64,000 nt of DNA from Elusimicrobiota bacterium. GTDB lineage: Bacteria; Elusimicrobiota; Elusimicrobia; FEN-1173. Shown here in pieces: positions 14,372 to 52,001 of this stretch (position 1 is its first letter; the number at the start of each line of letters is the position of its first letter). The stretch covers positions 768,887 through 832,886 of the forward strand of contig JADKIY010000001.1 of assembly GCA_016722575.1 (NCBI GenBank), given 5' to 3'. The notes under the pieces are model-generated. The model ran no database searches, was not told where the DNA came from, and worked only from the letters and a program-made list of their open reading frames with translations. Made by a program: the position numbers and the translations under genes.

Positions 14372-14451
14372 GGCGGCCGGGAATGGGAGGCCCGCCGCCG
14401 GAGGAGCTCCGATGAGCGTCCACGTCCGGGAAGGAACAACATGAGCCGACG

Positions 14452-23209: not shown

Positions 23210-25795
23210 TTACGCCTGGGTCATGATCTTGAGCATCGTCGCGATGTCGTTGGCGATGGCTTCGGAAAGCTTTTGCAGGCCGATGATCAGGAAACCCGCG
23301 GCTTTGGTGACGCTCTCGGCGTTCCGGGCGATGATCCGGGTTCCTTTCATCATTCCCGCTTTCTGGTTTTCCGGCCGGTTGATCCAGGCCACCACTTCCG
23401 ACATGACCACGCGGCCCTCGGCGTCCACCAGCCCCGGCACGCGGCCGGGCGTCAGCACGTGGACCACCGCTTCTTTTTGCACGGCATTGGCGAAGACATC
23501 GTTCAAGGGGTTGGCGCCTTCGGCCGCGACGATTAAATTGGTTCCCGGTCGGACCGCTTCGGCCAGCCCCGTGAGGAAAATCCGCATGTCCTTCTGTTCC
23601 CGGGCGCTCCAACCCATGTAACCAACCAAATTGACGTGGAGGGTGGTGGCCGAATCCTGGGCGGCCCGGGCCCCCGCGGCCAGCAGAGCGCCTTCGGCCA
23701 ATTGTTCCTGACGGGCGGGTTCGTTGATCAGCCGCCGGGCGGCGGCGCGGTCGTTGGAAAGGAGCTGGACGAGGCTTTCGAAACCGCTCAGCCGGGTGGC
23801 GTCGTCCACCGACGTGTATTCCGAACGAAGGTCGTTGAAGTTTCGCGCGGTCCAATAATCGCCGCTTCCGACCGGGGTCGGAATCGTGAAATTGAAGGGT
23901 TCCGCTTTGGAACCCAAAAGCGTTTCCATGAGGGCCAATCGCGCCCAGGCGTTAAAGTCTTCCTCGCCCGTTCCGGGGGACCGGCGGCCGTTGGGCCCCT
24001 TGGGCGTTTCGACGCCCGCGGGCAGACCGAGGGTCGGCGATTTGGGGGTGGCCGGGATCCCCAGGTCCACGGGGAAGGACCGGTTCCGGGCGTCCACAAA
24101 CGTGAGGGTGACCCGTCCGTCCGTCACGCCGACCGTGTAGGTGGTCAACCCGTAGACCGCTTGAACCCGGAAAACCCGTTGGCCGATCAAGGGAACCAGC
24201 CGATTGATTTCGGCTTTGACGGCGCTGTGGTTGGGGCTTAAGAGCGCGGGCGTCGGGGATTCGCGAAGAAGGAAGGACACCACGGCCGGAACGACGTCGT
24301 ACCGCAGCCAGAAGGCGTTTCGCGGAGACAAATTCGTCGCGCCCAGAACGCCCAGGGCCTGGGGATTGTAAAACTCCAGGGCGGCCGGCAATCCGAACCG
24401 TTCGCGAACGCCCGGCCAGTCTTTGGCGGCGGCGTCGATGTAGGGAAGCAGGGAGGAGGCGATCCGGGAATCCTCCGCCAAGGTGTCGGCTTCGGCCGTT
24501 TGGCGGTTGTCCCGGGCGATGTGCCCCGCCTCGTGGCCCCAGGTGTTCAAAAGGCCCACGGCCGTGTTGTTGCGGTCCAAATAAACGACCCGCTTGGCGT
24601 CGGCGTCCGATTCGCCCTTCTTTTTTAAATCGTTGAACAATCCCAGGGCCGGCAAATTGGAGGTGATCACCACCGCGCCGACCTTGGAGGTGTCCAGTTT
24701 CCAGGTGTGGGTCACCTCCAAAAGCCAGGCCAAAATCTTGGCGTCGTCGGCCGTGTTCGCTCCCTCCAAATTAATTTTTTGAAGTTGAGCCGAGGCCTGC
24801 AGAAGCGGGTTGGACTTTGCCATCCATTGCTCGGCCCGCTTGATCGACGCCTCGCTGGGCGCCAACTGGGACATGTCCAGGCGGGCCACTTGGGCCCGTT
24901 CCAGCGTGGCCAGGGGCAGGTTCGGGGTTTCCACGTTGGCTTGGGAAAGGGCCAGGGGGACGCTCAAAAGGTTGAGGGACAGGAGGGCGGCGGTGGCCAG
25001 GCCTTTGACGAAGCCGGTGCGATCGGCCATCCATCGCGCGACGGAATCGCGTACGTTGAGAAGCGCGTGGGCCGCGACCCCGGCGGCCGCCGCCGCGGCG
25101 GTCATCCAATGGGACACGCCGCCGGTCATAAACAGGTCCAGCATCATGAGAGGGACGAAGGTAGTGGACGCGATGGCCGTGGCCCCCACGGCGCGCCCAA
25201 AGGTTCCCGGGGCGGGCTCAAACCGTTTCGTCGCCGGGTTGTAATTCAGAATGCCGCTCACGTAGTGGGCGCCGAAAAGGGCTACTCCCAACGTGGCGTC
25301 GTTCAGCAGATCGGAGCCTTCCGCGTAGCCGGTGAAGGGAAGAAGGAAGTTCACCGCCAGGAGGAGCACCGATTCCAGGGCGCCGAAAAGGGCGAAGGAA
25401 AGGTTTCGGGAATTCCCGAGGGACGGGAACCGGTCCAAAAGGGCGTTGGCCACCGGCGCCCACCAGCCGACGGCGCCGCGGGTCGGGCCGTGGGCGGGGG
25501 CCGCGGCGGCGGGTTTCGTGGCCGAGAAACCAAGGCCGGTTAGCACTTCCGTTTGAATAAACTGGGTCAATTTCGGCCAAAGGGTGTCCGGTTCTTCGTC
25601 GGGCATTTCGATAACGACGAGCTTGTCCTCAAATCCAAGCTTTTTGGCCTGGGCCTTGAGCACCGCGAGGGCCGTGGCGGCGGGACGACCGTCCGGCCGA
25701 AGGGCCTTGGTGTCGACGAAGGCGATCAGGAAGTCGGGTTTGCGGGCGCGCAGGGTGTTCTCGTCGAATTTCGTCGTCGCGGGCGGGATATACAC
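23210..25795 (-). CDS. Giant-locus ORF3: polytopic membrane protein with an M48-like HEAGH zinc-metalloprotease motif
   Basis: 861 aa from GTG 25795. TM-rich region at aa ~130-285. NNTAVGLLNTWGHEAGHIARDN maps to 24521-24556 and resembles the M48 active site. The frame is open upstream to 25964 with no start codon, so it may be fused to ORF2 by a frameshift. Confidence 0.6.
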   Translation of the reverse strand: MYIPPATTKFDENTLRARKPDFLIAFVDTKALRPDGRPAATALAVLKAQAKKLGFEDKLVVIEMPDEEPDTLWPKLTQFIQTEVLTGLGFSATKPAAAAPAHGPTRGAVGWWAPVANALLDRFPSLGNSRNLSFALFGALESVLLLAVNFLLPFTGYAEGSDLLNDATLGVALFGAHYVSGILNYNPATKRFEPAPGTFGRAVGATAIASTTFVPLMMLDLFMTGGVSHWMTAAAAAAGVAAHALLNVRDSVARWMADRTGFVKGLATAALLSLNLLSVPLALSQANVETPNLPLATLERAQVARLDMSQLAPSEASIKRAEQWMAKSNPLLQASAQLQKINLEGANTADDAKILAWLLEVTHTWKLDTSKVGAVVITSNLPALGLFNDLKKKGESDADAKRVVYLDRNNTAVGLLNTWGHEAGHIARDNRQTAEADTLAEDSRIASSLLPYIDAAAKDWPGVRERFGLPAALEFYNPQALGVLGATNLSPRNAFWLRYDVVPAVVSFLLRESPTPALLSPNHSAVKAEINRLVPLIGQRVFRVQAVYGLTTYTVGVTDGRVTLTFVDARNRSFPVDLGIPATPKSPTLGLPAGVETPKGPNGRRSPGTGEEDFNAWARLALMETLLGSKAEPFNFTIPTPVGSGDYWTARNFNDLRSEYTSVDDATRLSGFESLVQLLSNDRAAARRLINEPARQEQLAEGALLAAGARAAQDSATTLHVNLVGYMGWSAREQKDMRIFLTGLAEAVRPGTNLIVAAEGANPLNDVFANAVQKEAVVHVLTPGRVPGLVDAEGRVVMSEVVAWINRPENQKAGMMKGTRIIARNAESVTKAAGFLIIGLQKLSEAIANDIATMLKIMTQA

Positions 25796-28700
25796 TTCCG
25801 GGGGTACGGCCGATACGTTGGCTTTCAGGGCTTCGGCGCGGTAATGCCGCGTCCGCCCAAAACCGTTGGCTCCCAGGCCGGCGGAGAAGAACCGAATCGT
25901 CTTCAGGGCTTCGGGGTCCGGGGCCCAGCAGGACTTTGTTTGCGTCCTCCGGGAAGTCCAGTTTCATCCCGCTGCGCATGGTCAGGGTCGTGACGGTCCC
26001 TTCGGGGGACGTCACTTCCAACCGGGGCAGAATGGCGTTGATGGAGGATTGGAACTGATCCCGCTCGGCGGCCGGGACCAGGGAACTGTTGAATTTGAAG
26101 AGCGCCTTGCGCGCCAGAATTTCGGCGATGGCGCTTCGGCTTTCGTTGTTGGAGCAAATGAACATGCCCGTGACGTGATCGTCCTCGGTCAGCCGCCCGC
26201 CGCGGCGCAATTTTTCGACGCTCGCCCGGAGTTTCGCTCCCGCCCGGGCCAGGACCGCTTTTCCTTCCGCGTCGATGTATTTGGGGGCCGCCGGACCGGC
26301 GGTGGGCGCGTGTCCGGCGGTCAAGGCCGTCCAACCGAAGCGGGCGGCGGCCCGGTTGTGGACGGCGTGGAGGGCCACGCTAGCCAGCGCGCCCAGGGGG
26401 GCCAGGAACAGCCCGCCGAAAGGGTCCATGAAGGCCAGGAGCAAAGGCGCGTGAATGGCCATGCCCCGCAGGGCCAAGTTCCACCGGGTTTGCCGGGTGG
26501 CGGGGGCGGGTTCCAATTCCCATCGGCCCAAACGGTCAACCCCCGACTCCGCGGGCTTATAGCGATAGACCGACCGGTGGGAAAAGCCGAAGGCCACGTT
26601 AACGAGGGCGAAGAGGCCGGTGGCCGCGAAGAAGGAATGATCGATGGAGACGCCGAAGAAGGACCCCAGGGCGCTCATCAAGCCCACGGAGGCGTAGAAG
26701 AAGACGCCCGTAGCGAGGGATTCCACCAAGGGGGCCTTTTCGTTGACAATGCGGTTGAGGTCGGCCGGATTATTCTTGTCGAGGTTGAAGACCCAGGCGA
26801 TCAGGGGCACCAGCCCCGGAATCGTCGCGGCAAGCGGTTTCTGTTCAAAATCAGCGGCTCTGACCAAATTGATGGCGACGCCATGGTAGCCGCCCCAATC
26901 CGCCGGCGGCGTCGATAGGAGAATTTTGTGGACGGTTGGCCGGCTACGCACAAATCGCCGAATGATCTCCGGGGTGGCCAGCGGTGTGGGATCGGTTGCA
27001 CCTGTCACAGCGGCGATCAACTTAAGGGCCTTGCGCTGGACGTCGGGGTGGTTCCTTAGGTATTCAAGGTATTCAGAGACAGCTTGTTCCCCGGGCGATA
27101 CGGGGGCGACGGAATGAGCGAAAGTTGTCACAAGCTGAAGGGGCGAGTCCTCGGGCCGCTGAGCGATGCGAGCCATAATCACTTTTAAATCATCGTTGTT
27201 CATCGGGCGGCCGGTGATTTCCTGGAAACGAGCCCGCCAGGCCTGAATATCTTGAGGCGTGAAAACTCTTACGTTGTTGGTAACAGGCTTCGGTTCCGTC
27301 GCGCGCAGGCGCCCCTCCAATTCGGTGCGCAGGGGCTCCGAGGGGAGGCTCTTGTCGATCGCCGGTCCCATGAGGTCTCTGATGTCGTCGGCGCTCAGCG
27401 TGGCTTTGATTTCAGAATGTTTGTATCGCTCTCTTTCGTCCGGGACGATTTCGCCGTTGGGCAATGCGACCTCCCGGCCTTCAAAGGCCCCATACCGGTA
27501 GCCGAGGCGTCCATGTGAGCGATCGCTAAAACGTTTGTCGCCCCCTGTCCCGAGCTCATGAAACTCAAGCCCCGGGACCTCTCCTATTCCCGCATCGGCC
27601 AGTCTCTTTTCCAGCAACATCCCCAGGAAGATGGCCGAAATCTCGTAAGGTTCAACCGACTTCCCTTTCAATTCGTTCAAACGGAATTTCTCATAGATTT
27701 GAGCTGCAATGGATTGATGCAGGTAGATGGTGATGCCTTTGGCGGCTTGAGTCTCATAATCCTTCAGAAACTCCAGCATTTCAAGGCCGTCGGCGACCTT
27801 GTGCGGTATGTTAAGGTCCCAAAGTACCGGCAGTATTGCGTCCAACACACGATCGGCGTCATCCGGCGTCAGGCTGATATGGAATTTCCAGCCCTGTTTG
27901 TCGCGCGGCAGTTCTCCCATTCGAACATCTGCATATCGCCATCCCCGCATCGGAACATATTTATCCTGCGGGGTTTTGAGGCGGATGGGGTCAGTCCCGT
28001 CCTCGCCCTTCCCGGGGCCCTTTCGGGCGGGCGCGTGCCCGGCGGTCAAGGCCGTCCAGCCGAAGCGGGCCGCGGCCCGGTTGTGGACGGCGTGGAGGGC
28101 CACGCTGGCCAGCGCGCCCAGGGGGGCCAGGAACAGCCCGCCGAAGGGATCAACGAAGGCCAGGAGCAAAGGCGCGTGAATGGCCATGCCCCGCAGGGCC
28201 AAGTTCCACCGGGTTTGCCGGGTGGCGGGGGCGGGTTCCAATTCCCATCGGCCCAAACGGTCAACCCCCGGCTCGGCGGGCTTGTAGCGGTAGAAGGAGC
28301 GGTGGGAAAAGCCGAAGGCCACGTTAACGAGGGCGAAGAGGCCGGTGGCCGCGAAGAAGGAATGATCGATGGAGACGCCGAAGAAGGACCCCAGGGCGCT
28401 CAAAATCCCGACGCCGGCGTAGAAGGCGAGGCCGGTGGCGACGGATTCGACCAGGGGGGCCTTCTCGTTGACAATGCGGTTGAGGTCGGCCGGATTGTTC
28501 CTGTCGAGGCCATAGACTCTGGCGATGAGGGGCACCAGCCCCGGAATCGTTGCGGCCGGCGGTGTCGCGGAACTTTCATTTAAGAAGGCATCCAATTGAC
28601 GTTTAACGTTTTTGTTTAACTGCTGCCAGTAGGAAAGACTTTGTTCCCACTCGTTGTAAACCTTGTCGTTGGCGAGGACGTCGGCCACGGCGTCCCCCGT

Positions 28701-28805
28701 GGCTTCAATGTATTTTTGAACGGAAACAAGGAAATCGCGACCGGCTTCGGATTGAATGGCGGAAAGGATTTCCCGATCAACGGTGCGGTCGTCGATCATT
28801 CCCAA
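25629..28805 (-). CDS. Giant-locus ORF2: membrane protein with two near-identical copies of a ~170-aa His-rich four-TM module flanking a ~420-aa soluble region; CX5R(S) motif near the C-terminus
   Basis: 1058 aa from TTG 28805 or ATG 28799. Modules at aa ~85-257 and ~660-832 are ~95% identical. CSNNESRS (C-x5-R-S) maps to ~26150. The last ~60 aa are Arg/Pro-rich and look like an out-of-frame tail. Confidence 0.6.
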   Translation of the reverse strand: MGMIDDRTVDREILSAIQSEAGRDFLVSVQKYIEATGDAVADVLANDKVYNEWEQSLSYWQQLNKNVKRQLDAFLNESSATPPAATIPGLVPLIARVYGLDRNNPADLNRIVNEKAPLVESVATGLAFYAGVGILSALGSFFGVSIDHSFFAATGLFALVNVAFGFSHRSFYRYKPAEPGVDRLGRWELEPAPATRQTRWNLALRGMAIHAPLLLAFVDPFGGLFLAPLGALASVALHAVHNRAAARFGWTALTAGHAPARKGPGKGEDGTDPIRLKTPQDKYVPMRGWRYADVRMGELPRDKQGWKFHISLTPDDADRVLDAILPVLWDLNIPHKVADGLEMLEFLKDYETQAAKGITIYLHQSIAAQIYEKFRLNELKGKSVEPYEISAIFLGMLLEKRLADAGIGEVPGLEFHELGTGGDKRFSDRSHGRLGYRYGAFEGREVALPNGEIVPDERERYKHSEIKATLSADDIRDLMGPAIDKSLPSEPLRTELEGRLRATEPKPVTNNVRVFTPQDIQAWRARFQEITGRPMNNDDLKVIMARIAQRPEDSPLQLVTTFAHSVAPVSPGEQAVSEYLEYLRNHPDVQRKALKLIAAVTGATDPTPLATPEIIRRFVRSRPTVHKILLSTPPADWGGYHGVAINLVRAADFEQKPLAATIPGLVPLIAWVFNLDKNNPADLNRIVNEKAPLVESLATGVFFYASVGLMSALGSFFGVSIDHSFFAATGLFALVNVAFGFSHRSVYRYKPAESGVDRLGRWELEPAPATRQTRWNLALRGMAIHAPLLLAFMDPFGGLFLAPLGALASVALHAVHNRAAARFGWTALTAGHAPTAGPAAPKYIDAEGKAVLARAGAKLRASVEKLRRGGRLTEDDHVTGMFICSNNESRSAIAEILARKALFKFNSSLVPAAERDQFQSSINAILPRLEVTSPEGTVTTLTMRSGMKLDFPEDANKVLLGPGPRSPEDDSVLLRRPGSQRFWADAALPRRSPESQRIGRTPGSVYPARDDEIRREHPARPQTRLPDRLRRHQGPSAGRSSRRHGPRGAQGPGQKAWI
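26309..26828. repeat. ~520-bp direct repeat, copy 2 (encodes a four-TM His-rich module)
   Basis: Near-identical to 28034-28553; the six-frame side ORFs 26321-26539 and 28046-28264 translate almost identically. Copies are separated by 1725 bp. Confidence 0.8.
28034..28553. repeat. ~520-bp direct repeat, copy 1 (encodes a four-TM His-rich module)
   Basis: See 26309-26828. Confidence 0.8.
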
Positions 28806-31800
28806 GTTGCGAGGGGCGTTCTTTCAGGCCGGGGCCCTCCCAGTGGCGCGCAATATCAAACAAGGTTTTAACGGTTTGCCGGGCCAGGCCGGGATCCATC
28901 CGGCCATGGGCTTTGATCTCGTGGAGCGTTTGCCCCTCGACAAATTCTTCGACGTACCATTGGATCTGCTCTTTGCCGTCGGGCGTTTCAATGAAATCGG
29001 CAAGGCCGAAGCGGGGCGTTCCGTGGCCTCCGATGGATTTCAGGGCATCAAGCTCTCCACGTGCGGGTCTTGAAGGCACAGGTTTTCTTTGGGAATTACG
29101 GACATCTTTTCCTTCCGCGACATAGGCGATGTCGAATTGGTCGGTCAAGTCGGTGGACGAAAGGGGAACCTCCAGGATCCGGCGAATCAGCATGGCGGCC
29201 GTCCCCTTGTCGACTTTCGTCAGAATTTCGCCGGCGGTGGTGGATAGGTCCGCCAGGCGCCGAGCCGTATCGGCCGGTTTTTCTCCGGGTTGCGTGGCGT
29301 AACGTCCGGCGATGGCGAACCGTCTAAAAGCACCGGCGGAGGACGAGGCCGGCCCTCCCGCCGTCATCGCCCGCCAGCCGAAATGGGAGGCCAGTTCGTT
29401 GTGGACGATGTGCAGGACGACGGAGGTGGCGGCGCCCAGGATCGTCACGAGGGGGCCTAGAAGGGGGAAGAGGTTTGTCCAGAGCAGCGGGGAGTGAATG
29501 GCCATTCCGCGCACGGCCAAGCTGAGGCGGGTGCCCCAGGAGGCAAATTTCGGTGTGCCGTCGGGGTTCGACTCGACTTCCCATTGGCCGTCCCGGTAGG
29601 TGTACACCCGGGCGTGAAGGGCGCCGAAGGCGAGGTTCGCCAGGGCGAAGAGCGAGTATTGGTTGAAAATCGTCGGATTCAGGGAAACCGGGACTCCGAG
29701 GAAACCGGAGACGATGACGTCCAGGTTGGACATCAGCACCATGGCCCCGAAATAGAAAAGACCGAAAAGGGCGGATTCGACGAAGGGGGCTTTTTCCGTC
29801 ACGATCTTGTTCAGGTCTTCCGGGCTGTTGGGGTTCAGCCGGTAGAGGCGGGCGATCAGCGGGACGAGGCCGGGGATGGTCGCGGGCGGGCCGCGATCCC
29901 GGTGGACGTTGGGGGCCGCGCCGGTTTTTAGAATGGGGATTTCGCCCCGGCCGAACCGGACGGCTTGATTGTAGAGGGTCAAGGATTGGTAGGCCAACGA
30001 AAGCAGTTTGGTCGGATTGGTTTTGACCCCGAACATGGGGAAATGCGAATTCGCGTTGTGAACGGCGGCGTATTGGAACGGCCAATAAAGGTCCAAGAAG
30101 GCCTTTTCCCGGGTGTCAACGGCGTAAATATCCGAAAGTTCGGGTTGGGACAAGGACACGTGGTTCGACCGTCCCAGGAGAACGTCGACCTTGAACGGGG
30201 TCGATTCACGCCCCCGTTCCCTGGTGGCGAAATATTCAATGACGGATTTGACGAACAGCGCGGATTTCCCGGACCCGTAAGTGTCCACCACGACAAAGGA
30301 CCGAGTCATCGGCAAGCCGCTGGAGCGGAATTGGCGATAAATTTGATTCGCGTAGTCGGCGAAAAGCGCGTCGCCTTCGATGAGAGCCGCTGTTTTTTGC
30401 TTGAATTTTTCCTCGATCCCCTCCCGAACGGCCGCCGATTTAATGCCCAATTGATCGAAGGGGAATAGACCTTCGGCGACGATTTCCCTAAAACTCTCGT
30501 CCATGATGTTCTTGATGGATTTGATGATTTGCGACAATTCTTTGTCGTCGTTGCGGCGATTGGGGCCCACCGGCGTGAATATGCCCGGATGGTAAACCAC
30601 GGCGGCGGCCGACGTTTGGTCGTTCAGTTGGTCCGTGTAGCGACGGAATTCGTTAATGGACAAGGCGTCGCGGGCCAGGAAGATCGGCACCTGCCCCGTT
30701 TCCTGAAGGCGCGCCACGACGTACGGCGCGAAGGCGACATGACTGTCGACGGCTTCCTGGTCCCGGGTGACGACGTCCGGGGCCAGCAATTGCCGCAATT
30801 CTTCCCGGGCGTGCAGGAAGGAGTCCCGGTTGACCTGGTTCGACCCGCCCATGAGCATCAGCCAGCCGGAGAGAATTTGATTGATTTCGTTGTCGGTGAA
30901 GACCCGGGGGCGTCCTTCGGCGTCCTTGGGAAACTGGTCCGCGTCCAAGGCCCAAGGCAAAGCCGCCAAGTCTTTCAACTGGAAAAGGCGCTCCTTTCCA
31001 AAAAACCGCTGGTGGTTGGCGAACAAACTCTGGGCCACGGGATGGGGGGTGAGCACAATGATCTTGGTGGATTGGAAAAAGCTTTCAATGCTCCCGGCCT
31101 TCCACCAATTCCGCATTTCGGGTTGGCGAATCAAGGACGCGTCGTGGATGGGGATGTTCCCGGGGGCCCATTGTTCGCCCGGCGTTCCCCGGCCCCGCAC
31201 TTGAATGAGTTCCGTGCCCTCAAAGGCGCGGCCCAGACGTTTGACGACGTTGCGGATGGCGATGTCTTGTAGGTGGCGGGCCGGCGTGTCGCCCTGCTTG
31301 GTGTAGTCCCCGCCGCTGGCCACGTTGGACGGAGCGGTGTCGTAGACGTCGCGCGCCATTTTAACCAGGCGGTCCAGTTCGTCGGGATGGGACTTGAAAT
31401 ATTGATAGTAGCCTTCTTCGTAAAATTCGTAGGCCCTTGATTCGTCCACGATTTGGTCGTTAATGACGTGCTTGATGGACCAGCCGCTGGGGCCGAACCA
31501 TTCGTCCAGCCGCGCCCGAATCGCCGGGGCGTTGTAGCCGAAATATCCGGGGCGAAAGAAGTCCTCCTTGGCGTATTCTTGTAAGAAATCCGCCAAGGAC
31601 ATTTTGACCAGGCGCTTGGCGTTGCTGGGGGGGCCTTGGTCCCCGTTGGCCGCGGTGGCGGCCGTCCAGCCGAACCGGGCGGCCAATTGGTTGTGGACGA
31701 CATGGAAAGCGACGCTGGTCAGAGCCCCCAGGGGGGCCAGGAAGAGGCCGCCGAGGGGGTCCATGAAGGCCAACAAGAGGGGGGTGTGAATGGCCGCGCC

Positions 31801-34800
31801 CCGGAGAGCCAACGCCCAACGATCGCGGAGGGACGCGGGGGCCGGTTCGGCCTCCCAGCGGCCCGTTCGGGTGACGCCCGGGAGGGGCGGCTTAAAGCGA
31901 TAAACCGACCGGTGGGAAAAGCCGAAGGCCAGGTTGACCAGGGCGAAGAGGCCCGTGGCGGCAAAGAAGGCGTGGTCGATGTGAAAGCCCACCGCGGAAC
32001 CCAGGGCGCTCAGGAGTCCCACGGCGGCGTAGAAGAAGACCCCCGTAACGACGGTTTCGACGAGGGGGGCTTTTTCGTTGATAATGCGGTTCAAATCCGC
32101 CGGGTTGGCGGGATTGAGTCCGTAAAGCCGGCCAATCAGGGGAACCAACCCCGAAATCGTCGCCGCCGGAGGCCCCCGGGGCGCCCCGGTGGACGTGGGG
32201 GCCAAGGTCCCGTTGGCGGACTGTTCGTCCAAGAGGACGACGTCGTTGCCAACGATGGATAGAGAGAATTGGTTGCGGGAAATGCCGCTGGTCGGGCCGA
32301 CGCCCAGGTCCTCCCGGCCGAATTGAAGGGTTGCGCCGGTCCGTCGATGGCCGTTCGGGAGAAGCAGAGACAATCCCCCTTCGGGGGTCGACTCCAGCAC
32401 TAGGTGGACGCCATTGACGACGAGGGGCACGGGCAGATGTTTTCGGGGGATGTTGACGGCCCCCGCGTTTTGGGACGGGCCGCCCAGGAGTGCCGTTGCC
32501 CGGACGTTCCTCCAGGCGTCAACGAGGGCGGTCAGATACTCGGCGGAGAAGGCTTCGATTCGCCCCGGGGTTTGATTGCGTTGGAGGGAAGAGACGGTCT
32601 GCTCGAGGGCATACACCTCATCGGACAACGGTTCGTTGGCCAATGGCCGGCCGAGCGCCGCCAAGTGGTCGTTCAAACGAGTGTCCAAGTGAAGCCGGAC
32701 GGTCCGCATTTGGGCCAGGTCGTCTCCCAGCTCCAAGTTCCCGGAATCTCCCCGGCGCAGGGTCCCGGCGGCCGACACACGCTGCCCCGCTTCGTCCCGA
32801 ATATCCGAAAGGGTGTAGCGGGCCGATCTCCCGCCCTCCGAGGCTTCGATGTCCACGGCCACGGCAAAGGCGGCGGCGTTTTGGATGTCGCTTAGGACGA
32901 CCGCCCCGTCTTGGGGGACGACGCGAATTTTGTCGCCTTTAATGTAAACGTCCAGGGGGATCCGAAGGGCGCGGCCCTGGGCCAAGATTCCCAAATCCCC
33001 CCGGACCGAGGCCAGAAGGGTCGATTCCAATCGTTCCCGGCCGGAATTTCCCTCTTCAGCGGGGCTCACGTCCACCGTGGTGTTGTTGGGTGAAAAGTTT
33101 TCCACCGTGGCTTCGCTGCCCGACCAGGCCAGGGCGGCGTGTTTGCGGGAAACTTCCACGCCGCTCAACCGGAGCGTGCGTCCCTCGGCGGCGGTTTGGC
33201 GGCCCAGAGTCAAGGATTCCCCGGGTTGAAGGACTTCCCGGCCTTCGGGGCCGGTGGCGATCAATCGGTTTCCCTCGAGCGAGAGGGAAACGCGGTTTCC
33301 GCTCAACACCAGGACCGAGGGGAAAGTGCCCAGCCGGCGGGGCCCCGACGTTGGCGTGAGAATCGTGTTCCCCGTGATGGCGGGGACGACCGGCGCGACC
33401 GGGGTCTCGACGACGGGTTCCGCCGGCCGGGTGATCCGCAGGGCGTTGTTCAGGAAGAAGTCGGCCGTTCCCTGCCGTTCGTTGGTGACGCCGAAATCGA
33501 AGTAGGCTTCCGGGATGACGTTCCAGGTTTTTTTAACGGTCTCATTGTTGAATTCCGCCGCGCCGTCCCCCGGCTGAAAACGGGCGCGTCCCGCGGAGGC
33601 GGGGGCCAAAATCACGCCGGGGGTGAGGCGGGCGAGCTGTTCCCAGGCGGCCTTCCAAACGGGACTCAAATCGTAGCCCGAGGCGTTGTAGTCGCCGAAA
33701 ACGAGAACGCCCTGATCGGTCATCACCAGCACCACGTTGGCGATCATGGCCCCGGTGGCTTCGTCGTAGGCCATGGCGAAGGCGGAGTTGGATTCCAGGG
33801 CGTGGGCCACGGGCATTTCCTGGTGGCCGCCCCCGAAGGGATTGAAGCACCCCGGAACCCGGTGCCCGGCGGCCACTTCGTCCAGGAGGCTTTTCTGGAT
33901 TTTCACCGAGACCCGGGCCCGGGCGTCGTCTTTTAGTTTCTGCGTGGCCAAGAGGGACCGGAGGGCGATGAGGATTTCGTTGAAGTGGAGTTGAATTTGG
34001 AGGAACCGTTCCTCGGGGTTTTCCACGCCGTCCCGGGAGAGGCGGTCGATGGCCTCGTCCCGTTGGCCGAGGATCCGCTCGTTCACGAATTGTTCGGCGG
34101 CGGCGTAGGTGTCCAGGGCGTCGGCCGTTTGCGCGGCTTCGGCCGCCTTGACCAGTCCCAGGGATCGGGCGATCTGGACCAACTGTTCGGTTTGCCTCTG
34201 AACCTGGACAATCCGTTCCTGGGCCGACAGCGGGGCCACGTCCTGGGCCGGGACGACGATTCCCCGGTCCCACAACGCGGGGGAATAGCCCGCCGCCAGA
34301 AGCGCGGCCTTGGCCTCGCCGTTGCCGGGGATTTGGGCGAGGTTGTGCGCCGCGGCGGCGGCGTTCGCCGCCTCGGCCGTCCCACCGTTGCGGAGCGTCT
34401 CCAGCCAGGTCGTGACGGCCGACTTCAGCCGGTCCGCCAACCCCGCCGTTTCCCCGGTCGGGGCGCGCTCCGGCCGCAACGACGTGGTCAAGGACGTGGC
34501 CACGATCAGTTGCGTCAATTGCCGCTGGTCCAGCTTCTCCAAAATGGGAGCGTTTTCCTCGCCGAAAACCTCCAGAACCGCCTGCCGCTCGGCGGCGGCG
34601 ACGACCGCCTCGACCGTCCTAGCCAGATTTTTCGGTCGGAGCGACCCGCCGGCGAAAGCGGCCGCCAAGGCGCGCATGGCTTCCAGGGAAGGTTCGAGTT
34701 TTTCCCGGGAATTGGCTTCCGCGTGAAGTTTAAGAAGCAGACTCCAACGGTAAAAGGTTTCGATCAAACGGTAATAGTCGATGGCCGGGTCGGTGCGTCG

Positions 34801-37800
34801 AAGGAATTCGAAAAACGGATCCCTTTCGCTCCAATAGGGAAGGCCCGCCAGGGCCTCGTCCAACAGTCCCACGCTGGGAACGCGGTTTTTCTCCGCCAGG
34901 AACATCAATAAATCCAGGGAAGCCGCGGGGCCGATGTGGCGGGAAAGGGCCCCGTCCACGTGATTGATGAGATGACCCTCTTCCGGCACGCTCCATCGCT
35001 CGGCGATTCCCCGAAGCCGCTCGGCCAGGGCCGCCATGCGCTCGGGGCGGGCCGTTGAGCTTCCGGTGTTCCGTGCCGTCGTGGCCAGGGCCCGGGCGGC
35101 AAAACCCATGAAGGATCCCTCGCTGGAGCGGATTTTTCTCGGATCGACTCGGACGCCGAGGGTTCCCAGCAAAGCGATTTCCTCCGGGGACAGGGCGCCA
35201 AGGTGTTTCAGGTCGTCGCTGGGAATGTTCAGGGCCCGCAAGGTTTTGGTCCGCTCGAAGGCCTGGACGAAGGCCGGGGCCTGGGCCAGGGGGCCTTTGA
35301 GCGGGCGATCCCGGGTGTCCTCCCAGGGGCTGAACGCCGATTCCAGGGCTCTTTCCACTTCGCTCGACAAATTGAAGCGCGCGCTCTGACCGGCCACGGC
35401 CAAATCCGCCAACAAGGGTTTTTGAAGATCCGGGTAGACCAACCCGAGCAGCAACAGGCCCACCGCGGCCTTTTCCTCCGTTTGGTATCGGGAGGGTTTA
35501 TCCCCTTCAAAGAGCAGTTCGGAAAGACCGGTAAAAAATTCCAGAGGCGCCGTTTCACTTTCGCGGCCCACGGGGGATCGGGCCAGCAATTCCAGGAAGT
35601 GGACCTTGGTGAGGCCGAAAATCATGCCCTCGTTTTCCCGTACAAATTGCGATTTGAGAACCCGCTCGATGGCCGCCGCGCTTTCCCCGGGGTCGGGGGA
35701 GGACAGCAGTCGGTTGCCGAGGGTGTTTTGAATCGTTTGTGATTTTGTCTGATCGAAAACCTCCCCCAGGAGGAAGGAGATTTTCCAGAGAGTCTGGGCG
35801 TCCGGTCCCTCGGTCAACAATTTGGGGGAGTCCGCCACGCGCTGGAAATAGAGTTGACGGAATTCCCGGTGGAGGCGTTGTAGGTCGGCGGGGGCGGACA
35901 GAAGAGCCTGGGTGGCGGCGCCGAAATCGGCCCCCTCTTTAACCAGAACGTGTCCCGCGAGGGCGATCATGGCCCGCTCGGACCGGTCGTAGGCGTCCAT
36001 GCGGTCGAAAAATTCACCGAGTCGAACCAGCGCCTCCGGATTGGATATCGCGTGGTGGACGATCCTCTCGGCCATGACCTCCCCGGGGACGGGCACGTCT
36101 TGGGTGGAAGTTCCCGCGCCTTGGCGGGCCATGTTCAGAAGCCGGTTCAAGGCCAGGGCCAGTTCGGGCTTTTCGTTCAGCCGTTGGTCGGGGGCCAGAA
36201 GGCGATCGAGTCCGGCGAGGGCCGTGGGCGAGGTGAATTTTCCGTACCTTCGGAGATTGGACAGGCCGGCCAGGTGGTCTTCCGTTGATCCCGTCAAAAA
36301 GGCGCCACCGCCGCGGCGTTGGGCCCAGTTGACCCCCGCGTGGCCCAAAACGCCTACCGCAAAGCCCCCGACGACGGGACCGAGAACGGAAGACGAGACC
36401 CCCGCCAGTTCTTGCAAACCTTGAAGGGGCGCGGCCCAGAAATGGGATGTTCCGAGGGAAAGAAGCGTGTTTCCCAATTCCCGAACGAGGAGGGGAAGGT
36501 TTTGAATGATTTCGGTTGGGCCGAAGGCGGCAAAGGAGGGGACAAAGGCGCCTGTCAAAAAGACCGTGACGGCCAAGGACGCGACTCCGAAAGCCGTGAA
36601 CAGGGAAAAGATGCCAAGTCGATCGAGGGGGGTGGCTTCGCGTTGTTGAAGAGCTCCGTCTTTCCCGTAGTAGTAGACCTGTTTGTGCGTTGCCAACGTG
36701 ATTTTGGCCGCGACGACCAAGGCGGCGGTCAGGGACCAAGCGGGAGAACCCGCCAGGAGAAGAATGGGGTAAACGTACAGGAGAAACCGGGCGTTCTCGC
36801 CGAAGGGGGCGGACCATAAAACCGTGCGGGCGGGATCGGTGCGCATCGATCCGGCGTAGTTCCCGGAGAAAAGCGGCCGACGCGCCAAGTCGCTCAAAGC
36901 GGAGCGGGCGCGGACCACGACCGATTCGGTCAGAGCGCCGGGGAGGGCCGCCGCACGGGCGAATAAGCCCGACATTCGGGAGGCCAAACCGCCGACCAAA
37001 GCGCCGAAGGCGGCCACGACCGATCCCGTTCTCCGAACCATGTCCACGGCGTGGCCGTTGCCCAGATCGACGTGGCGGTCGGCGGCCCCGTGGACGTTGT
37101 CGCAGGGCTCCAGGGCCTCGGCGGCCGATACGGATACCGCGCGGACGCCGTTTTGCAGGACTTCCTGGGCGCCGTGAATAAACCGGGGGGTTTCGCCCGT
37201 CGCGTCGGCCAGGGCGATGGGGTGGGAAAGATAAATGCGGTCGCCGGCGACCAATTTTTCCAGGGGAACGGGGTCGTGGGCCAGGATGTCCAGGTAATCG
37301 CTCTCGCCGGGGACGTCCGTGATTTTAGGCGTGACCACGACGTAGGAAATTTGTTTTTGCCGGAGAAGGCCGGTCAATCCCTCGGTGTGGAAGCCGCCGG
37401 CCACGAGCACGCCGGTGGTGGTGCCTTTTTCGGCCATTTTAGCCAGGAGGTTGGCCACCAGGGCGTCGTTTCGACGGACGGCGTAGGAGCAGAAATCCTC
37501 AAAGGGCTTGAGCGTTTCAACCGTCAGGGACGGGAGCCGGGCCACCGTCGGATCCAGGGCCGCCAGGCGGTCCCGAAGGGCCAGAATCTCGGGCCGGCGC
37601 TTTTCGTAGGCCACCCAGTCGGGCATGGCCATTTCGTGCCGGAGCATTTTTTCCAACAGGGCCAGGTCCCGGGCGATGTTCATTAAGGCGGTTTCGGCGG
37701 GGGTTTTGGCCAGGGAATTTTGGGCGGCGATTTCCAACTGGTCCAGTTCGGCCACGAGCTCGTTGCGGCTGATCTTCTCCGCCAGCAGGACGTAGGTGAT

Positions 37801-39099
37801 GTAGCTGGAGAGTTGGCCGAAATCGTCCAGGCGAATTTTGTTGTCGGCGCAGACCTGGCGCAGGTGGCGGTGGTAGTCGCCGTAGCCCATCCGGCCCGTG
37901 CGGTAATCGATGCTTCGGGCCACCAAGTCCTGGAGGGCCGGTTTCGACAGGCGGCGGACCAAAACTTCCACCAGGCGTTGGCGCTCGGTTTCCACGGCCT
38001 TGAAATCGAGGTTTTCCTCCCAATCCAGGGCGTTCAGCATCAGGCGGACGTTGGGAATGTCCAGGCGCCCGTCCCGGCCGCCGGGGGTTTTGACCAGGGC
38101 CCGGACGTAGTCGCCCAACTTTTCCCGCTGGGCCTTGTAGGCTTCAAAATGCCGGTCGAAGTTCTTGAGGCCTTCGGAGAAGGTTTTTTTCTTTTCCTGG
38201 TCGGCGACGGCCCGCAGGGTGGCCAGGGTGGCGAGGAGGGTGGTTTTGGTCTTGAAAGCGGTTTTGAGGGCTTTGACGTTCCCTTCGTAGAGGGCCGAGT
38301 CTTCCGCGCCGTAGAAGGCCGGGGCCTGGGGCAGGGTGAGTCCGGCGTACTCGGGCCCCGCGATCAGGCCTTTAATCAAAAGGAAATCGGCGATGTCTTT
38401 GGTGATGGACGAATCGGGGTAGGTGCGGTAGGGGTCCAGGGTGAAGGAGCCCGAGGCGCCTTCCAGTCCCACCAGGTTGACCCGGCGTTCCTGCATGAGC
38501 GCCCCGAGCATGGCGGAGATGTTTCGCTGGGCTTCCTCGATGCCGTGGGCGTCTTGGATGTGAACGACCACCGGGGCGTTGGCTTTGGGGGAGAGGTAGA
38601 CGTCCCGCACCCAGCCGTAGGGCGTGACCAGCTTGCCCAGCCAGTCCTGGGGGGCCGTTTTGGTGGGGGGGATCTTGGCCAATTCTCCGGGGGTGGAGGA
38701 AATGGCGGATCCGCCGGCCGAGCCCAGGTCCATCCGGACCGCCTGGGGGATTTGGGACAAGAGCATGTTGCCCTCTTGCCCCAGGTCGATCCCCTCGGAT
38801 TCCGGCGGCTGCATTTTGCGCGCCGCGACCCGACGAGCGCTCCAAAAGTTTTGCTCCTGGGCGTAGACGCCGAGGACGTTGCAGAAAAAGAAGGAGGCCG
38901 CCAAGGCGCCGCCCAGGGCGGACCGAAGGCCCGCCGAAGGTCGGAGGAGCCGTCGCTCCTTTGGAGCGCCGACTGTCCCCGGAGCTCCGCGAAGGGGGCG
39001 GAGGAGCCGTCGCTCCTTTGGAGCGCCGACTGTCCCCGGAGCTCCGCGAAGGGGGCGGAGGGACGGGAGAAAGCGAAGTAAGGCTTTGGTTTTCGTCAT
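28777..39099 (-). CDS. Giant-locus ORF1: 3440-aa multidomain membrane protein (signal/TM, possible TraB/GumN-like domain, TM block, long helical regions, 2x FHA, 2x four-TM His-rich module)
   Basis: Uninterrupted 10.3-kb frame with protein-like composition throughout. FHA signatures are LTLGRQ...VSRKHAALAWSG...NFSPNNTTVD and LQFGRED...ISRNQFSLS...LLDEQSANGT. Modules ATI[PS]GLVPLI...IDH[SA]FF...FGFSHRS...H.VHN are at ~31645-32165 and ~29350-29910. VHIQDAHG and VLVAGGFHTEGL resemble TraB/GumN family motifs (weak). Confidence 0.7.
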   Translation of the reverse strand: MTKTKALLRFLPSLRPLRGAPGTVGAPKERRLLRPLRGAPGTVGAPKERRLLRPSAGLRSALGGALAASFFFCNVLGVYAQEQNFWSARRVAARKMQPPESEGIDLGQEGNMLLSQIPQAVRMDLGSAGGSAISSTPGELAKIPPTKTAPQDWLGKLVTPYGWVRDVYLSPKANAPVVVHIQDAHGIEEAQRNISAMLGALMQERRVNLVGLEGASGSFTLDPYRTYPDSSITKDIADFLLIKGLIAGPEYAGLTLPQAPAFYGAEDSALYEGNVKALKTAFKTKTTLLATLATLRAVADQEKKKTFSEGLKNFDRHFEAYKAQREKLGDYVRALVKTPGGRDGRLDIPNVRLMLNALDWEENLDFKAVETERQRLVEVLVRRLSKPALQDLVARSIDYRTGRMGYGDYHRHLRQVCADNKIRLDDFGQLSSYITYVLLAEKISRNELVAELDQLEIAAQNSLAKTPAETALMNIARDLALLEKMLRHEMAMPDWVAYEKRRPEILALRDRLAALDPTVARLPSLTVETLKPFEDFCSYAVRRNDALVANLLAKMAEKGTTTGVLVAGGFHTEGLTGLLRQKQISYVVVTPKITDVPGESDYLDILAHDPVPLEKLVAGDRIYLSHPIALADATGETPRFIHGAQEVLQNGVRAVSVSAAEALEPCDNVHGAADRHVDLGNGHAVDMVRRTGSVVAAFGALVGGLASRMSGLFARAAALPGALTESVVVRARSALSDLARRPLFSGNYAGSMRTDPARTVLWSAPFGENARFLLYVYPILLLAGSPAWSLTAALVVAAKITLATHKQVYYYGKDGALQQREATPLDRLGIFSLFTAFGVASLAVTVFLTGAFVPSFAAFGPTEIIQNLPLLVRELGNTLLSLGTSHFWAAPLQGLQELAGVSSSVLGPVVGGFAVGVLGHAGVNWAQRRGGGAFLTGSTEDHLAGLSNLRRYGKFTSPTALAGLDRLLAPDQRLNEKPELALALNRLLNMARQGAGTSTQDVPVPGEVMAERIVHHAISNPEALVRLGEFFDRMDAYDRSERAMIALAGHVLVKEGADFGAATQALLSAPADLQRLHREFRQLYFQRVADSPKLLTEGPDAQTLWKISFLLGEVFDQTKSQTIQNTLGNRLLSSPDPGESAAAIERVLKSQFVRENEGMIFGLTKVHFLELLARSPVGRESETAPLEFFTGLSELLFEGDKPSRYQTEEKAAVGLLLLGLVYPDLQKPLLADLAVAGQSARFNLSSEVERALESAFSPWEDTRDRPLKGPLAQAPAFVQAFERTKTLRALNIPSDDLKHLGALSPEEIALLGTLGVRVDPRKIRSSEGSFMGFAARALATTARNTGSSTARPERMAALAERLRGIAERWSVPEEGHLINHVDGALSRHIGPAASLDLLMFLAEKNRVPSVGLLDEALAGLPYWSERDPFFEFLRRTDPAIDYYRLIETFYRWSLLLKLHAEANSREKLEPSLEAMRALAAAFAGGSLRPKNLARTVEAVVAAAERQAVLEVFGEENAPILEKLDQRQLTQLIVATSLTTSLRPERAPTGETAGLADRLKSAVTTWLETLRNGGTAEAANAAAAAHNLAQIPGNGEAKAALLAAGYSPALWDRGIVVPAQDVAPLSAQERIVQVQRQTEQLVQIARSLGLVKAAEAAQTADALDTYAAAEQFVNERILGQRDEAIDRLSRDGVENPEERFLQIQLHFNEILIALRSLLATQKLKDDARARVSVKIQKSLLDEVAAGHRVPGCFNPFGGGHQEMPVAHALESNSAFAMAYDEATGAMIANVVLVMTDQGVLVFGDYNASGYDLSPVWKAAWEQLARLTPGVILAPASAGRARFQPGDGAAEFNNETVKKTWNVIPEAYFDFGVTNERQGTADFFLNNALRITRPAEPVVETPVAPVVPAITGNTILTPTSGPRRLGTFPSVLVLSGNRVSLSLEGNRLIATGPEGREVLQPGESLTLGRQTAAEGRTLRLSGVEVSRKHAALAWSGSEATVENFSPNNTTVDVSPAEEGNSGRERLESTLLASVRGDLGILAQGRALRIPLDVYIKGDKIRVVPQDGAVVLSDIQNAAAFAVAVDIEASEGGRSARYTLSDIRDEAGQRVSAAGTLRRGDSGNLELGDDLAQMRTVRLHLDTRLNDHLAALGRPLANEPLSDEVYALEQTVSSLQRNQTPGRIEAFSAEYLTALVDAWRNVRATALLGGPSQNAGAVNIPRKHLPVPLVVNGVHLVLESTPEGGLSLLLPNGHRRTGATLQFGREDLGVGPTSGISRNQFSLSIVGNDVVLLDEQSANGTLAPTSTGAPRGPPAATISGLVPLIGRLYGLNPANPADLNRIINEKAPLVETVVTGVFFYAAVGLLSALGSAVGFHIDHAFFAATGLFALVNLAFGFSHRSVYRFKPPLPGVTRTGRWEAEPAPASLRDRWALALRGAAIHTPLLLAFMDPLGGLFLAPLGALTSVAFHVVHNQLAARFGWTAATAANGDQGPPSNAKRLVKMSLADFLQEYAKEDFFRPGYFGYNAPAIRARLDEWFGPSGWSIKHVINDQIVDESRAYEFYEEGYYQYFKSHPDELDRLVKMARDVYDTAPSNVASGGDYTKQGDTPARHLQDIAIRNVVKRLGRAFEGTELIQVRGRGTPGEQWAPGNIPIHDASLIRQPEMRNWWKAGSIESFFQSTKIIVLTPHPVAQSLFANHQRFFGKERLFQLKDLAALPWALDADQFPKDAEGRPRVFTDNEINQILSGWLMLMGGSNQVNRDSFLHAREELRQLLAPDVVTRDQEAVDSHVAFAPYVVARLQETGQVPIFLARDALSINEFRRYTDQLNDQTSAAAVVYHPGIFTPVGPNRRNDDKELSQIIKSIKNIMDESFREIVAEGLFPFDQLGIKSAAVREGIEEKFKQKTAALIEGDALFADYANQIYRQFRSSGLPMTRSFVVVDTYGSGKSALFVKSVIEYFATRERGRESTPFKVDVLLGRSNHVSLSQPELSDIYAVDTREKAFLDLYWPFQYAAVHNANSHFPMFGVKTNPTKLLSLAYQSLTLYNQAVRFGRGEIPILKTGAAPNVHRDRGPPATIPGLVPLIARLYRLNPNSPEDLNKIVTEKAPFVESALFGLFYFGAMVLMSNLDVIVSGFLGVPVSLNPTIFNQYSLFALANLAFGALHARVYTYRDGQWEVESNPDGTPKFASWGTRLSLAVRGMAIHSPLLWTNLFPLLGPLVTILGAATSVVLHIVHNELASHFGWRAMTAGGPASSSAGAFRRFAIAGRYATQPGEKPADTARRLADLSTTAGEILTKVDKGTAAMLIRRILEVPLSSTDLTDQFDIAYVAEGKDVRNSQRKPVPSRPARGELDALKSIGGHGTPRFGLADFIETPDGKEQIQWYVEEFVEGQTLHEIKAHGRMDPGLARQTVKTLFDIARHWEGPGLKERPSQLGNDRRPHR
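32180..32420 (-). other. FHA domain 2 within giant ORF1
   Basis: ...LQFGREDLGVGPTSGISRNQFSLSIVGNDVVLLDEQSANGTLAP carries the G-R...S-R/H...N-G-T FHA signature. Confidence 0.6.
33060..33330 (-). other. FHA domain 1 within giant ORF1
   Basis: ...LTLGRQTAAEGRTLRLSGVEVSRKHAALAWSGSEATVENFSPNNTTVD carries the same FHA signature. Confidence 0.6.
38944..39057. repeat. 57-bp in-frame tandem duplication near the 5' end of giant ORF1
   Basis: gaggagccgtcgctcctttggagcgccgactgtccccggagctccgcgaagggggcg x2, with a partial copy upstream. Encodes LRPLRGAPGTVGAPKERRL x2, just before the predicted signal/TM segment. Confidence 0.8.
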
Positions 39100-43842: not shown

Positions 43843-44874
43843 ATGACCGACCCCACTTCCTATTCCAACAACCCCTCGGCCGGCCGTCTGGAGGCCCTCG
43901 CGAGCCGCGTCGGCCCCTCGGCGGAGGCCATTCGGCGCCACCCCTGGGCCTTTTTGGCCGCCGCTTTTCTGGCCGCCGCGATTTCCACCGCCTTGGCCAC
44001 CTATTGGATCATCGGGGGATTGATTCACAGCCGCCAGGCCGTCACCGTGCCGGACTTGACGGGCAAAAACCTGGAAACGGCCTTGGACCTTCTGGGGCCC
44101 CTTCGTTTGTCCCTGGCCAAAGACGCCGTCCAAATCGACGAAAATTTTCCGCCCGGCGCCATCCTGCGCCAGGTGCCTCCCGCGGGCATTAAAGTCCGGG
44201 AGGGGAAAGTGGTCCACGTCACGCTTTCCTCCGGTGGCCAAGTGCTCTTCGTCCCCGAATTGACCGGCACGACGTTGACGGAGGCCCAGAACCGTCTCCG
44301 CTCCGCGGGGCTCGTGCTCGGGGCCATGTCCCAGGCCTATTCGACGCAAAGAGAAGCCGGGTGGGTCATGGAGCAATCCCCGCCCATCGGGGCCGTCATC
44401 AAGCCCGGGTCCATGGTGGATTTGAAGGTGTCCAAGGGACCGCCCCCCGAAGGCACCACCCTCATGCCGGATTTCATCAACCGGCCATTCGGGTTGGCGC
44501 GCCAATGGGCCAAAGACGCGGGCGTGGAAGTGAAATCGACGGAGGAATTGTCGCCCACCCTGCCCGGACTCGTGTTGAATCAGACCCCCGCGCCGGACAC
44601 GCCGCTCGCCGAAAAGGCGGCCGTGACGTTCGTGGTGGCCAAGTCGAGCTCGACCGCCGCGGCCGACGTGAAGTTGATCCGCTACGAGATTCCCCCTGGA
44701 ACCGAGCGCGTGCAGGTGCGCATCGTGCTGCGGGACGACGACGGGGAAAAAGAGGTTTACCAGTCCCAGCAGAACGCGGGGTCCGCGGTGGAAGTCGCCG
44801 TGGCGCCCAAGGGCGCCGCCCGGGCCCGTATTTTCGTCGACGGCGTGTTGATCGAAGAACGCCCCCTGCCGTAA
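43843..44874 (+). CDS. PASTA-domain protein with no kinase domain (TM anchor + three PASTA repeats + C-terminal beta-rich domain)
   Basis: TM helix (WAFLAAAFLAAAISTALATYWIIG) then three units of ..VPDLTG.....A...L........, the PASTA pattern. No Ser/Thr kinase catalytic motifs. Confidence 0.8.
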   Translation: MTDPTSYSNNPSAGRLEALASRVGPSAEAIRRHPWAFLAAAFLAAAISTALATYWIIGGLIHSRQAVTVPDLTGKNLETALDLLGPLRLSLAKDAVQIDENFPPGAILRQVPPAGIKVREGKVVHVTLSSGGQVLFVPELTGTTLTEAQNRLRSAGLVLGAMSQAYSTQREAGWVMEQSPPIGAVIKPGSMVDLKVSKGPPPEGTTLMPDFINRPFGLARQWAKDAGVEVKSTEELSPTLPGLVLNQTPAPDTPLAEKAAVTFVVAKSSSTAAADVKLIRYEIPPGTERVQVRIVLRDDDGEKEVYQSQQNAGSAVEVAVAPKGAARARIFVDGVLIEERPLP

Positions 44875-51645: not shown

Positions 51646-52001
51646 TTGATCTTTTCCTCCGTGATTTTGAGCGAGGCGTCCAGGTCGGCCAGGGCGGCTT
51701 CAGCGTCGTCCTGGGCCCGGGGCCGGTGGGTTTGGTTGGCGGCCCTCAGGGTTTCCAATTTCATGGCCGCCACGGTGCGGAACTCCTCCAAGTCGTCCAG
51801 GGCCCGGTTGATTTCCCGGCGATTGCGGTGGGCCGTGTTGTCCGCGCGCTGGCGGAGGCGTTCGGCTTGCTGGGTCCGGGCCTTCAAGCGCAAATCCAAT
51901 TCCGCCACGCTGGCCCGCGCGGGGGGCGCCGGTTGAGGGGCCCGGCATCCCGACGGGGCCAGGAGGCTTAGGGCAAACCAAAAGATCCGTCGACGCTTCA
52001 C
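51642..52001 (-). CDS. Coiled-coil lipoprotein, hypothetical
   Basis: Lipobox LLAPSGC; overlaps the AsmA-like start by 4 nt. Confidence 0.5.
   Translation of the reverse strand: MKRRRIFWFALSLLAPSGCRAPQPAPPARASVAELDLRLKARTQQAERLRQRADNTAHRNRREINRALDDLEEFRTVAAMKLETLRAANQTHRPRAQDDAEAALADLDASLKITEEKIK

Follow-up and report, generated by a model that had tools for sequence, protein, structure and literature searches.

Analysis of a 64,000-nt stretch of DNA from an Elusimicrobiota bacterium (FEN-1173; GCA_016722575.1, contig JADKIY010000001.1, positions 768,887–832,886 of the forward strand), hereafter the window, indicated that it encodes a giant polytopic membrane protein of mosaic architecture. 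This protein probably carries a juxtamembrane tandem cassette, in which a genuine FHA domain (FHA1) is joined by a linker of ~160 amino acids (aa) to a second, FHA-derived module (FHA2). FHA1 was assigned to the FHA family at the sequence level and retains all residues that contact phosphothreonine. FHA2 has a beta-rich predicted fold and is shortened. The features concerned are listed below.

28777..39099, minus strand: giant open reading frame (ORF) of 3440 aa, host of the FHA cassette; GC content at third codon positions 0.77, with coding-like codon-position GC
32935..33324, minus strand: FHA1, aa 1926–2055, with the FHA core preceded by an additional N-terminal beta-hairpin and followed, past Asn-x-Thr, by a helical insert and closing strands VRGDLGILAQGRALRIPL
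33070..33210, minus strand: FHA1 core matched by Pfam PF00498, aa 1964–2010, holding G1966-R1967, S1984, H1987 and N2005/N2006-T2007
32461..32940, minus strand: inter-FHA linker, aa 2054–2213 (~160 aa), beta-rich in its first half and helical in its second, conserved in the orthologue
32197..32460, minus strand: FHA2, aa 2214–2301, a truncated beta module resembling FHA, with G2261-R2262, S2274, Q2277 and N2296-G-T2298
31660..32172, minus strand: first His-rich membrane module, aa 2310–2480, directly past FHA2; its start, TISGLVPLIGRLYG, is predicted to be helical

Two motif sets lie in one giant ORF

Residue i of the giant ORF begins at nt 39099-3(i-1). In this frame, motif set 1 reads G1966-R1967 (nt 33204), S1984-R-K-H1987 (nt 33150) and N2005-N-T-T2008 (nt 33087), and motif set 2 reads G2261-R2262 (nt 32319), S2274-R-N-Q2277 (nt 32280) and N2296-G-T2298. 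The two sets (aa 1966–2008 and aa 2261–2298) belong to the same ORF and fall within 32180–33330, where an earlier note on this DNA had reported two FHA motif sets with the same letters. Its placement of the FHA segments midway in a protein of >3000 aa, just ahead of the first His-rich membrane module, was also confirmed: the last residue of FHA2 is aa 2301 and the first of the module aa 2310, leaving 8 residues between them, and the sequence past Asn-Gly-Thr leads straight into the module. The wording 'envelope protein' was loose; the protein is polytopic and its FHA side is probably cytoplasmic.

Besides its two His-rich membrane modules, the giant protein has a signal/anchor sequence at the N-terminus and a cluster of transmembrane segments at aa ~690–925. 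FHA (PF00498) was the sole family at E ≤ 1 in a Pfam-A scan of the whole protein; an NCBIfam scan returned no family, and no ATPase family was found anywhere in the protein by either scan. Sequence searches of the PDB with aa ~930–1900 and aa 2481–3070 gave no match. A relaxed pattern with spacing, GR..S[RKA].[HQ]..N[GN]T, had a frequency of 0.001 per shuffled protein, and none of 2000 shuffles contained it twice; this is only a rough bound because the pattern was devised after the data had been seen.

FHA1 has the sequence of a divergent FHA domain

The gathering cutoff of the Pfam FHA profile is 20.7 bits. FHA1 scored 23.3 bits in the scan of the whole protein and 20.0 bits (E 9e-4), 0.7 bits under the cutoff, when its segment was scanned alone; its Pfam membership is therefore borderline. 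No family other than FHA was found for the isolated segment at E ≤ 10. In a PDB search with the single sequence, the best match was FhaA/Rv0020c (E 0.019). A profile built from two sequences, FHA1 and its orthologue (described below), matched FhaA/Rv0020c with an E-value of 4e-6, followed by GarA, ArnA and CEP170, with EmbR lower in the list (E 0.62); all these matches are FHA domains. When the FHA1 profile was aligned by hhalign with an alignment of 120 annotated GarA-type FHA proteins, the probability was 95.5% and the E-value 1.3e-8, and BLASTP gave 28–39% identity to GarA-type proteins across most of the core. A word-indexed search with the FHA1 profile found no relative.

Phosphothreonine is contacted by Gly-Arg in the beta3-beta4 loop, Ser-x-x-His in the beta4-beta5 loop and Asn in the beta6-beta7 loop. 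Every one of these residues is present in FHA1 (G1966-R1967, S1984, H1987 and N2005/N2006-T2007), and none of the five signature residues differs between the window and the orthologue, at an overall identity of ~36%. MAFFT placed FHA1 in register with GarA-type domains and aligned its closing motif VRGDLGILAQGRALRIPL plausibly to GarA NGDEVQIGKFRLVFL. Judged by its sequence, FHA1 is a genuine but divergent FHA domain with intact phosphothreonine pocket residues. An AlphaFold2 (AF2) model from the two-sequence alignment had a predicted local distance difference test score (pLDDT) of 39 and was too poor to be informative on the eleven-stranded fold. Two other attempts were set aside: tblastn of FHA1 against plasmids returned only noise (DUF4926, aspartate kinase), and a hidden Markov model made from only the 120 GarA-like sequences was too narrow, the window scoring lower than with the Pfam profile.

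The cassette keeps its position in an orthologue

A search of 1.84 billion representative proteins with the FHA region found one lineage (P0002/P0003), with 38% identity across all 396 residues. Genome and metagenome scans yielded one locus each, both of this lineage: L003, in an Elusimicrobiota metagenome-assembled genome, and L004, on a Joint Genome Institute (JGI) contig, where the orthologue occupies an open frame of >4300 codons. A word-indexed search with the FHA region found a relative of the membrane module and downstream domain only, and none of the FHA part. Identity between the giant protein and the L004 orthologue varied by region as follows.

aa 50–736: 91%
aa 742–949: 58%
aa 950–1887: no detectable similarity
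aa 1888–2500: 51% (FHA part 37%)
aa 2306–3256: 81%

These regional identities indicate that the cassette of FHA1, linker, FHA2 and membrane module keeps its position while its upstream neighbour has been replaced. The key residues of the cassette are conserved as well. The orthologue's motifs are more canonical, reading IGR...VSRRHA...SPNGTYV and FGR...ISAKHF...STNGTLV, and Pfam FHA matched it in two stretches with 44 bits (41.6 in the full ORF), as the sole Pfam family in the >4300-aa protein. A fragment with its FHA1 alone scored 27.8 bits.

These scores bear on whether the entire resemblance could be a chance match of motifs in a long, compositionally unusual protein that has no FHA domain. 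The borderline Pfam scores of the window's own sequence would fit such a match; however, it is already contradicted by the orthologue's scores for FHA1 alone and for both stretches, and by the profile E-values of 4e-6 and 1.3e-8, and the shuffle test also speaks against it. We find a chance origin scarcely credible.

Two further differences from L004 were observed. In place of aa 950–1887 (window ~33439–36252, ~940 aa), L004 carries ~610 unrelated residues with HD-like motifs. In the N-terminal signal/anchor region, a perfect 57-bp tandem duplication (2.1 copies, 38942–39061) duplicates the peptide LLRPLRGAPGTVGAPKERR, which is wholly absent from the L004 orthologue.

FHA2 resembles a truncated FHA domain

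Scanned alone, FHA2 scored 14.2 bits with Pfam FHA (E 0.059; profile positions 15–45 of 67), below the cutoff, and no family besides FHA appeared at E ≤ 10. A single-sequence PDB search found no FHA domain and returned one insignificant match (hemophilin, E 4.6). With a profile of the two lineages, all eight PDB matches were FHA domains, Rad53 FHA1 and 1uht among them, at E-values of 0.06–0.36. Alignment by hhalign gave E-values of 5.5e-4 against FHA1 and 8.5e-4 against GarA, with probabilities of 24–30%. In every alignment, the GR, S and NGT motifs of FHA2 were in register with those of FHA1 and GarA. Of the phosphothreonine-contact positions, G2261-R2262, S2274 and N2296-G-T2298 are kept; at position 2277, Gln replaces the structural His in the window, whereas the orthologue has His (SAKH).

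The structure of FHA2 was predicted from an alignment that combined FHA2 and its orthologue with both FHA1 copies and 40 GarA-type proteins. The AF2 model had a mean pLDDT of 71, with values of 75–91 across residues 1–88, so the beta part was confident. It contained eight strands, three of them extra at the N-terminus and none past Asn-Gly-Thr, and not an eleven-stranded sandwich. By position, strands 4–6 correspond to canonical beta1–3 and strands 7–8 to canonical beta5–6. The residues downstream were disordered and then helical, the helical part being the membrane module. A Foldseek search with the model listed many FHA entries, with the FHA domain of EmbR as best match (E 0.14, probability 0.77), and gave no match at E ≤ 0.001. 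EssC, Chk2, Rv1747 FHA-1, Rad53, PNK, EmbR, GarA and FhaA recurred among its structural matches.

No sequence is available in FHA2 to form the C-terminal third of the fold (strands 7/8–11). The module's start, TISGLVPLIGRLYG, does not complete the FHA sandwich since it is predicted to be helical. A MAFFT alignment to GarA GDEVQIGKFRLVFL had prompted the idea that the membrane module's opening motif ISGLVPLIGRLYGL supplies the missing last strands. This idea was rejected because the motif opens every module copy, even those without a preceding FHA module, and because AF2 predicts a helix there.

Is only FHA1, then, FHA-related, the second segment being a small beta domain of other descent in which the GR, S and NGT motifs occur by coincidence? 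Such a coincidence would suit the 14.2-bit score (E 0.059), the low hhalign probabilities of 24–30% and the absence of the C-terminal strands. Yet all Pfam and PDB profile matches of FHA2 and of the orthologue's copy are FHA-clan families, the orthologue's FHA2 shows S-x-x-H and S-T-N-G-T in canonical form, the three motifs share register and predicted loops with FHA1 and GarA, and the pattern is expected by chance only ~0.001 times per protein. We consider an unrelated domain distinctly improbable. FHA2 is not a canonical FHA domain; an FHA origin is the best reading of the motif register, the second Pfam stretch of the orthologue and the all-FHA PDB matches. We read FHA2 as a truncated FHA derivative, which kept the N-terminal two thirds and the Gly-Arg, Ser and Asn-Gly-Thr loops and lost the C-terminal strands. 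The place of the lost strands is probably taken by the three additional strands at the N-terminus.

The earlier note's proposal of two FHA domains was thus upheld for FHA1 at the sequence level (Pfam, profiles and pocket residues) and had to be revised for FHA2. The checks it had suggested divided similarly: by the Pfam profile, FHA1 passed in the whole protein and FHA2 fell short, while structure prediction was uninformative for FHA1 and gave FHA2 a weak resemblance to FHA domains.

The cassette is predicted to be cytoplasmic

The membrane module past FHA2 contains two hydrophobic helices separated by a 4-residue turn, followed by a loop between transmembrane helices 2 and 3 (TM2-TM3 loop) with 8 K/R versus 3 D/E. 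According to the positive-inside rule this loop is cytoplasmic, and FHA2, two helices away, should therefore be cytoplasmic too. The sequence thus probably places the FHA cassette on the cytoplasmic side, where FHA function is expected. The inter-FHA linker matched no known family in Pfam and PDB searches.

The His-rich membrane module, ~171 aa long, occurs in four copies on the minus strand (31660–32172, 29368–29889, 28050–28562 and 26325–26837), the giant ORF and the one after it holding two each, with the consensus PPATIxGLxPLIxRLYxLNP...HxxH...HxVHNxLAxxFGW. It belongs to no Pfam or NCBIfam family. Its His pairs (HIDH, HVVHN) suggest metal binding, as far as motifs can tell.

Neighbouring genes and search for a kinase

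Pfam scans of 38 ORFs of the window found no Hanks kinase or PP2C. The sole related item in these scans was a PASTA protein without a kinase domain (43843–44874, plus strand), in which three PASTA domains accompany a single transmembrane helix and a short cytoplasmic tail. Its gene is flanked by rlmN and rpe, in a def-fmt-M48-rlmN-PASTA-rpe cluster; prpC-prkC occupies this site in Bacillus. A kinase-like domain at the C-terminus of the giant ORF was considered on account of a hinge-like 'YVEEFVEGQTL', continued across the ORF junction via a frameshift ('APRNLGMIDD'). It was dropped because Pfam and PDB searches of the spliced sequence gave no kinase match.

The giant ORF is the first of three successive minus-strand ORFs (3440, 1058 and ~860–917 aa) with coding-like GC at third codon positions and overlapping ends at 28777–28823 and 25629–25963; the tail of the second looks like Arg-rich sequence in the wrong frame. 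Two frameshifts (assembly error or pseudogene) may interrupt a single gene of >5000 aa, or the ORFs may be three genes that overlap. Between the two membrane modules of the second ORF (25629–28805) lies a stretch resembling the N-terminus of RamC/LanKC (RamC_N; ~27714–27941, minus strand) with the motif GWKFHIS. It scored 43.8 bits with Pfam PF25816 (cutoff 27), covering only profile positions 21–97 of 191, and matched LanKC chains in the PDB at E-values of 0.0015–0.4. In class III lanthipeptide synthetases, the N-terminal region forms a phospho-Ser/Thr lyase domain. The stretch hints at a wider phospho-Ser/Thr theme and is no proof of one.

A bolder proposal would make FHA2 an undescribed minimal or permuted FHA variant, with three N-terminal strands in place of the missing C-terminal ones, and the FHA pair one part of a self-contained phospho-Ser/Thr circuit in a mosaic of >5000 aa, the other part being the LanKC/RamC-type stretch of the next, possibly contiguous ORF. 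We give this proposal little credence.

Elsewhere in the window are two adjacent genes for membrane-associated GGDEF diguanylate cyclases (14416–15870 and 15797–17203, plus strand) and one for a large AsmA/TamB/YhdP-like protein (49264–51699, minus strand), consistent with a diderm envelope.

Comparison with known FHA proteins

Rv1747 and EssC offer the nearest parallels to the cassette. Rv1747, an ABC transporter of Mycobacterium tuberculosis, consists at its N-terminus of FHA-1, a linker and FHA-2, and is regulated by PknF. Phosphothreonines of its inter-FHA linker are bound by its FHA domains (PMC3138270, PMC8339232). The giant protein likewise has two linker-joined FHA modules, probably cytoplasmic, that immediately precede a transmembrane domain, and Rv1747 FHA-1 was among the structural matches of the FHA2 model, with 27–28% identity across 53–60 aligned positions. 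Unlike Rv1747, the host protein has 3440 aa and no ABC domains, its cassette is internal (aa 1926–2301) rather than N-terminal, no kinase gene is adjacent, FHA2 is truncated, and the linker appears largely folded instead of disordered, going by an impression of its secondary structure only. A kinase-coupled FHA module of the Rv1747/PknF or FhaA/PknB type would have a Hanks kinase or PP2C nearby, and the 38 ORFs scanned contained neither.

In sequence, the FHA1 core is closest to FhaA (Rv0020c) and GarA, at an identity of only about 30–35%. The G-R, S-R-x-H and N-x-T residues of FHA1 are identical to those of FhaA and GarA/OdhI of Actinobacteria. Those proteins are small soluble single-FHA adaptors; FHA1, in contrast, carries an additional hairpin at its N-terminus and, past Asn-x-Thr, a helical insert of ~20 residues.

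EssC/YukB, the type VIIb secretion ATPase, has two N-terminal FHA domains ahead of two transmembrane helices and resembles the giant protein in that its tandem FHA-fold modules directly adjoin the membrane helices that follow. The EssC FHA domains are phospho-independent and offer a plausible model for FHA2 (PMC4925161), although the structural similarity of EssC/YukB to the FHA2 model is weak. Unlike in EssC, FtsK-type ATPase domains were not detected in the giant protein, and FHA1 retains phosphothreonine residues that EssC has lost. YscD/PrgH (PF16697) also has a cytoplasmic FHA-clan domain adjoining a membrane segment, in its case beside a single transmembrane helix; unlike for YscD/PrgH, there is no type III secretion context here.

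These cases raise the alternative that both modules are phosphorylation-independent FHA-fold scaffolds, serving interaction or spacing and positioning the membrane modules, comparable to EssC's tandem FHA domains or to the FHA-like domain in YscD/PrgH. EssC and YukB were the top FHA-type matches of the FHA2 model in a separate structural comparison, and the orthologue's FHA2 weakly matched Yop-YscD_cpl (PF16697, FHA clan) at 15.9–18.8 bits versus a cutoff of 33.2. The EssC domains adjoin transmembrane helices and lack phosphothreonine residues (PMC4925161); the window's FHA2 lacks the His, and no kinase or PP2C was found among the ORFs scanned. FHA1, however, retains all its phosphothreonine-contacting residues in both lineages at 36% identity, where EssC lost them, and its nearest sequence relatives, FhaA and GarA, are phosphopeptide binders. 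We regard a purely scaffolding role of both modules as rather unlikely, and favour the cassette with a genuine FHA1 and an FHA-derived FHA2.

Possible role of the cassette

Several observations weigh against the favoured cassette. The isolated FHA1 segment and FHA2 both score under the Pfam cutoff, the AF2 model of FHA1 is uninformative, and FHA2 has Gln at the His position and no sequence for its C-terminal third. The FHA2 model is biased toward FHA because its alignment contained FHA sequences, and in a structural comparison viral class II fusion proteins, which are generic beta-sandwiches, ranked slightly above any FHA domain. The topology of the earlier transmembrane cluster (aa 690–925) is ambiguous, no Hanks kinase or PP2C was found among the ORFs scanned, and the conservation statistics are thin because they come from a single orthologous lineage.

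Phosphopeptide binding and any regulatory role we infer only. The cassette, tethered 8 residues from the first transmembrane module, would lie on the cytoplasmic face. A Ser/Thr kinase encoded elsewhere might write phosphothreonine on a partner or on the giant protein's own linker, and FHA1 would dock that phosphothreonine peptide. By analogy with Rv1747, docking could link phosphorylation to how the membrane modules assemble, cluster or act. FHA2, as in EssC, would more likely be a structural or phospho-independent interaction module.

For FHA biology, a familiar type of domain in an unusual host protein is an ordinary extension and brings no new mechanism. It adds a further example of tandem FHA modules before transmembrane helices, outside Actinobacteria and Firmicutes. 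FHA is the sole recognisable domain in a family of giant mosaic membrane proteins (3400 to >4300 aa), found so far only in two Elusimicrobiota lineages, and is therefore the one clue to how their control might work. It suggests docking that depends on Ser/Thr phosphorylation, which may take place where the repeated His-rich membrane modules face the cytoplasm.

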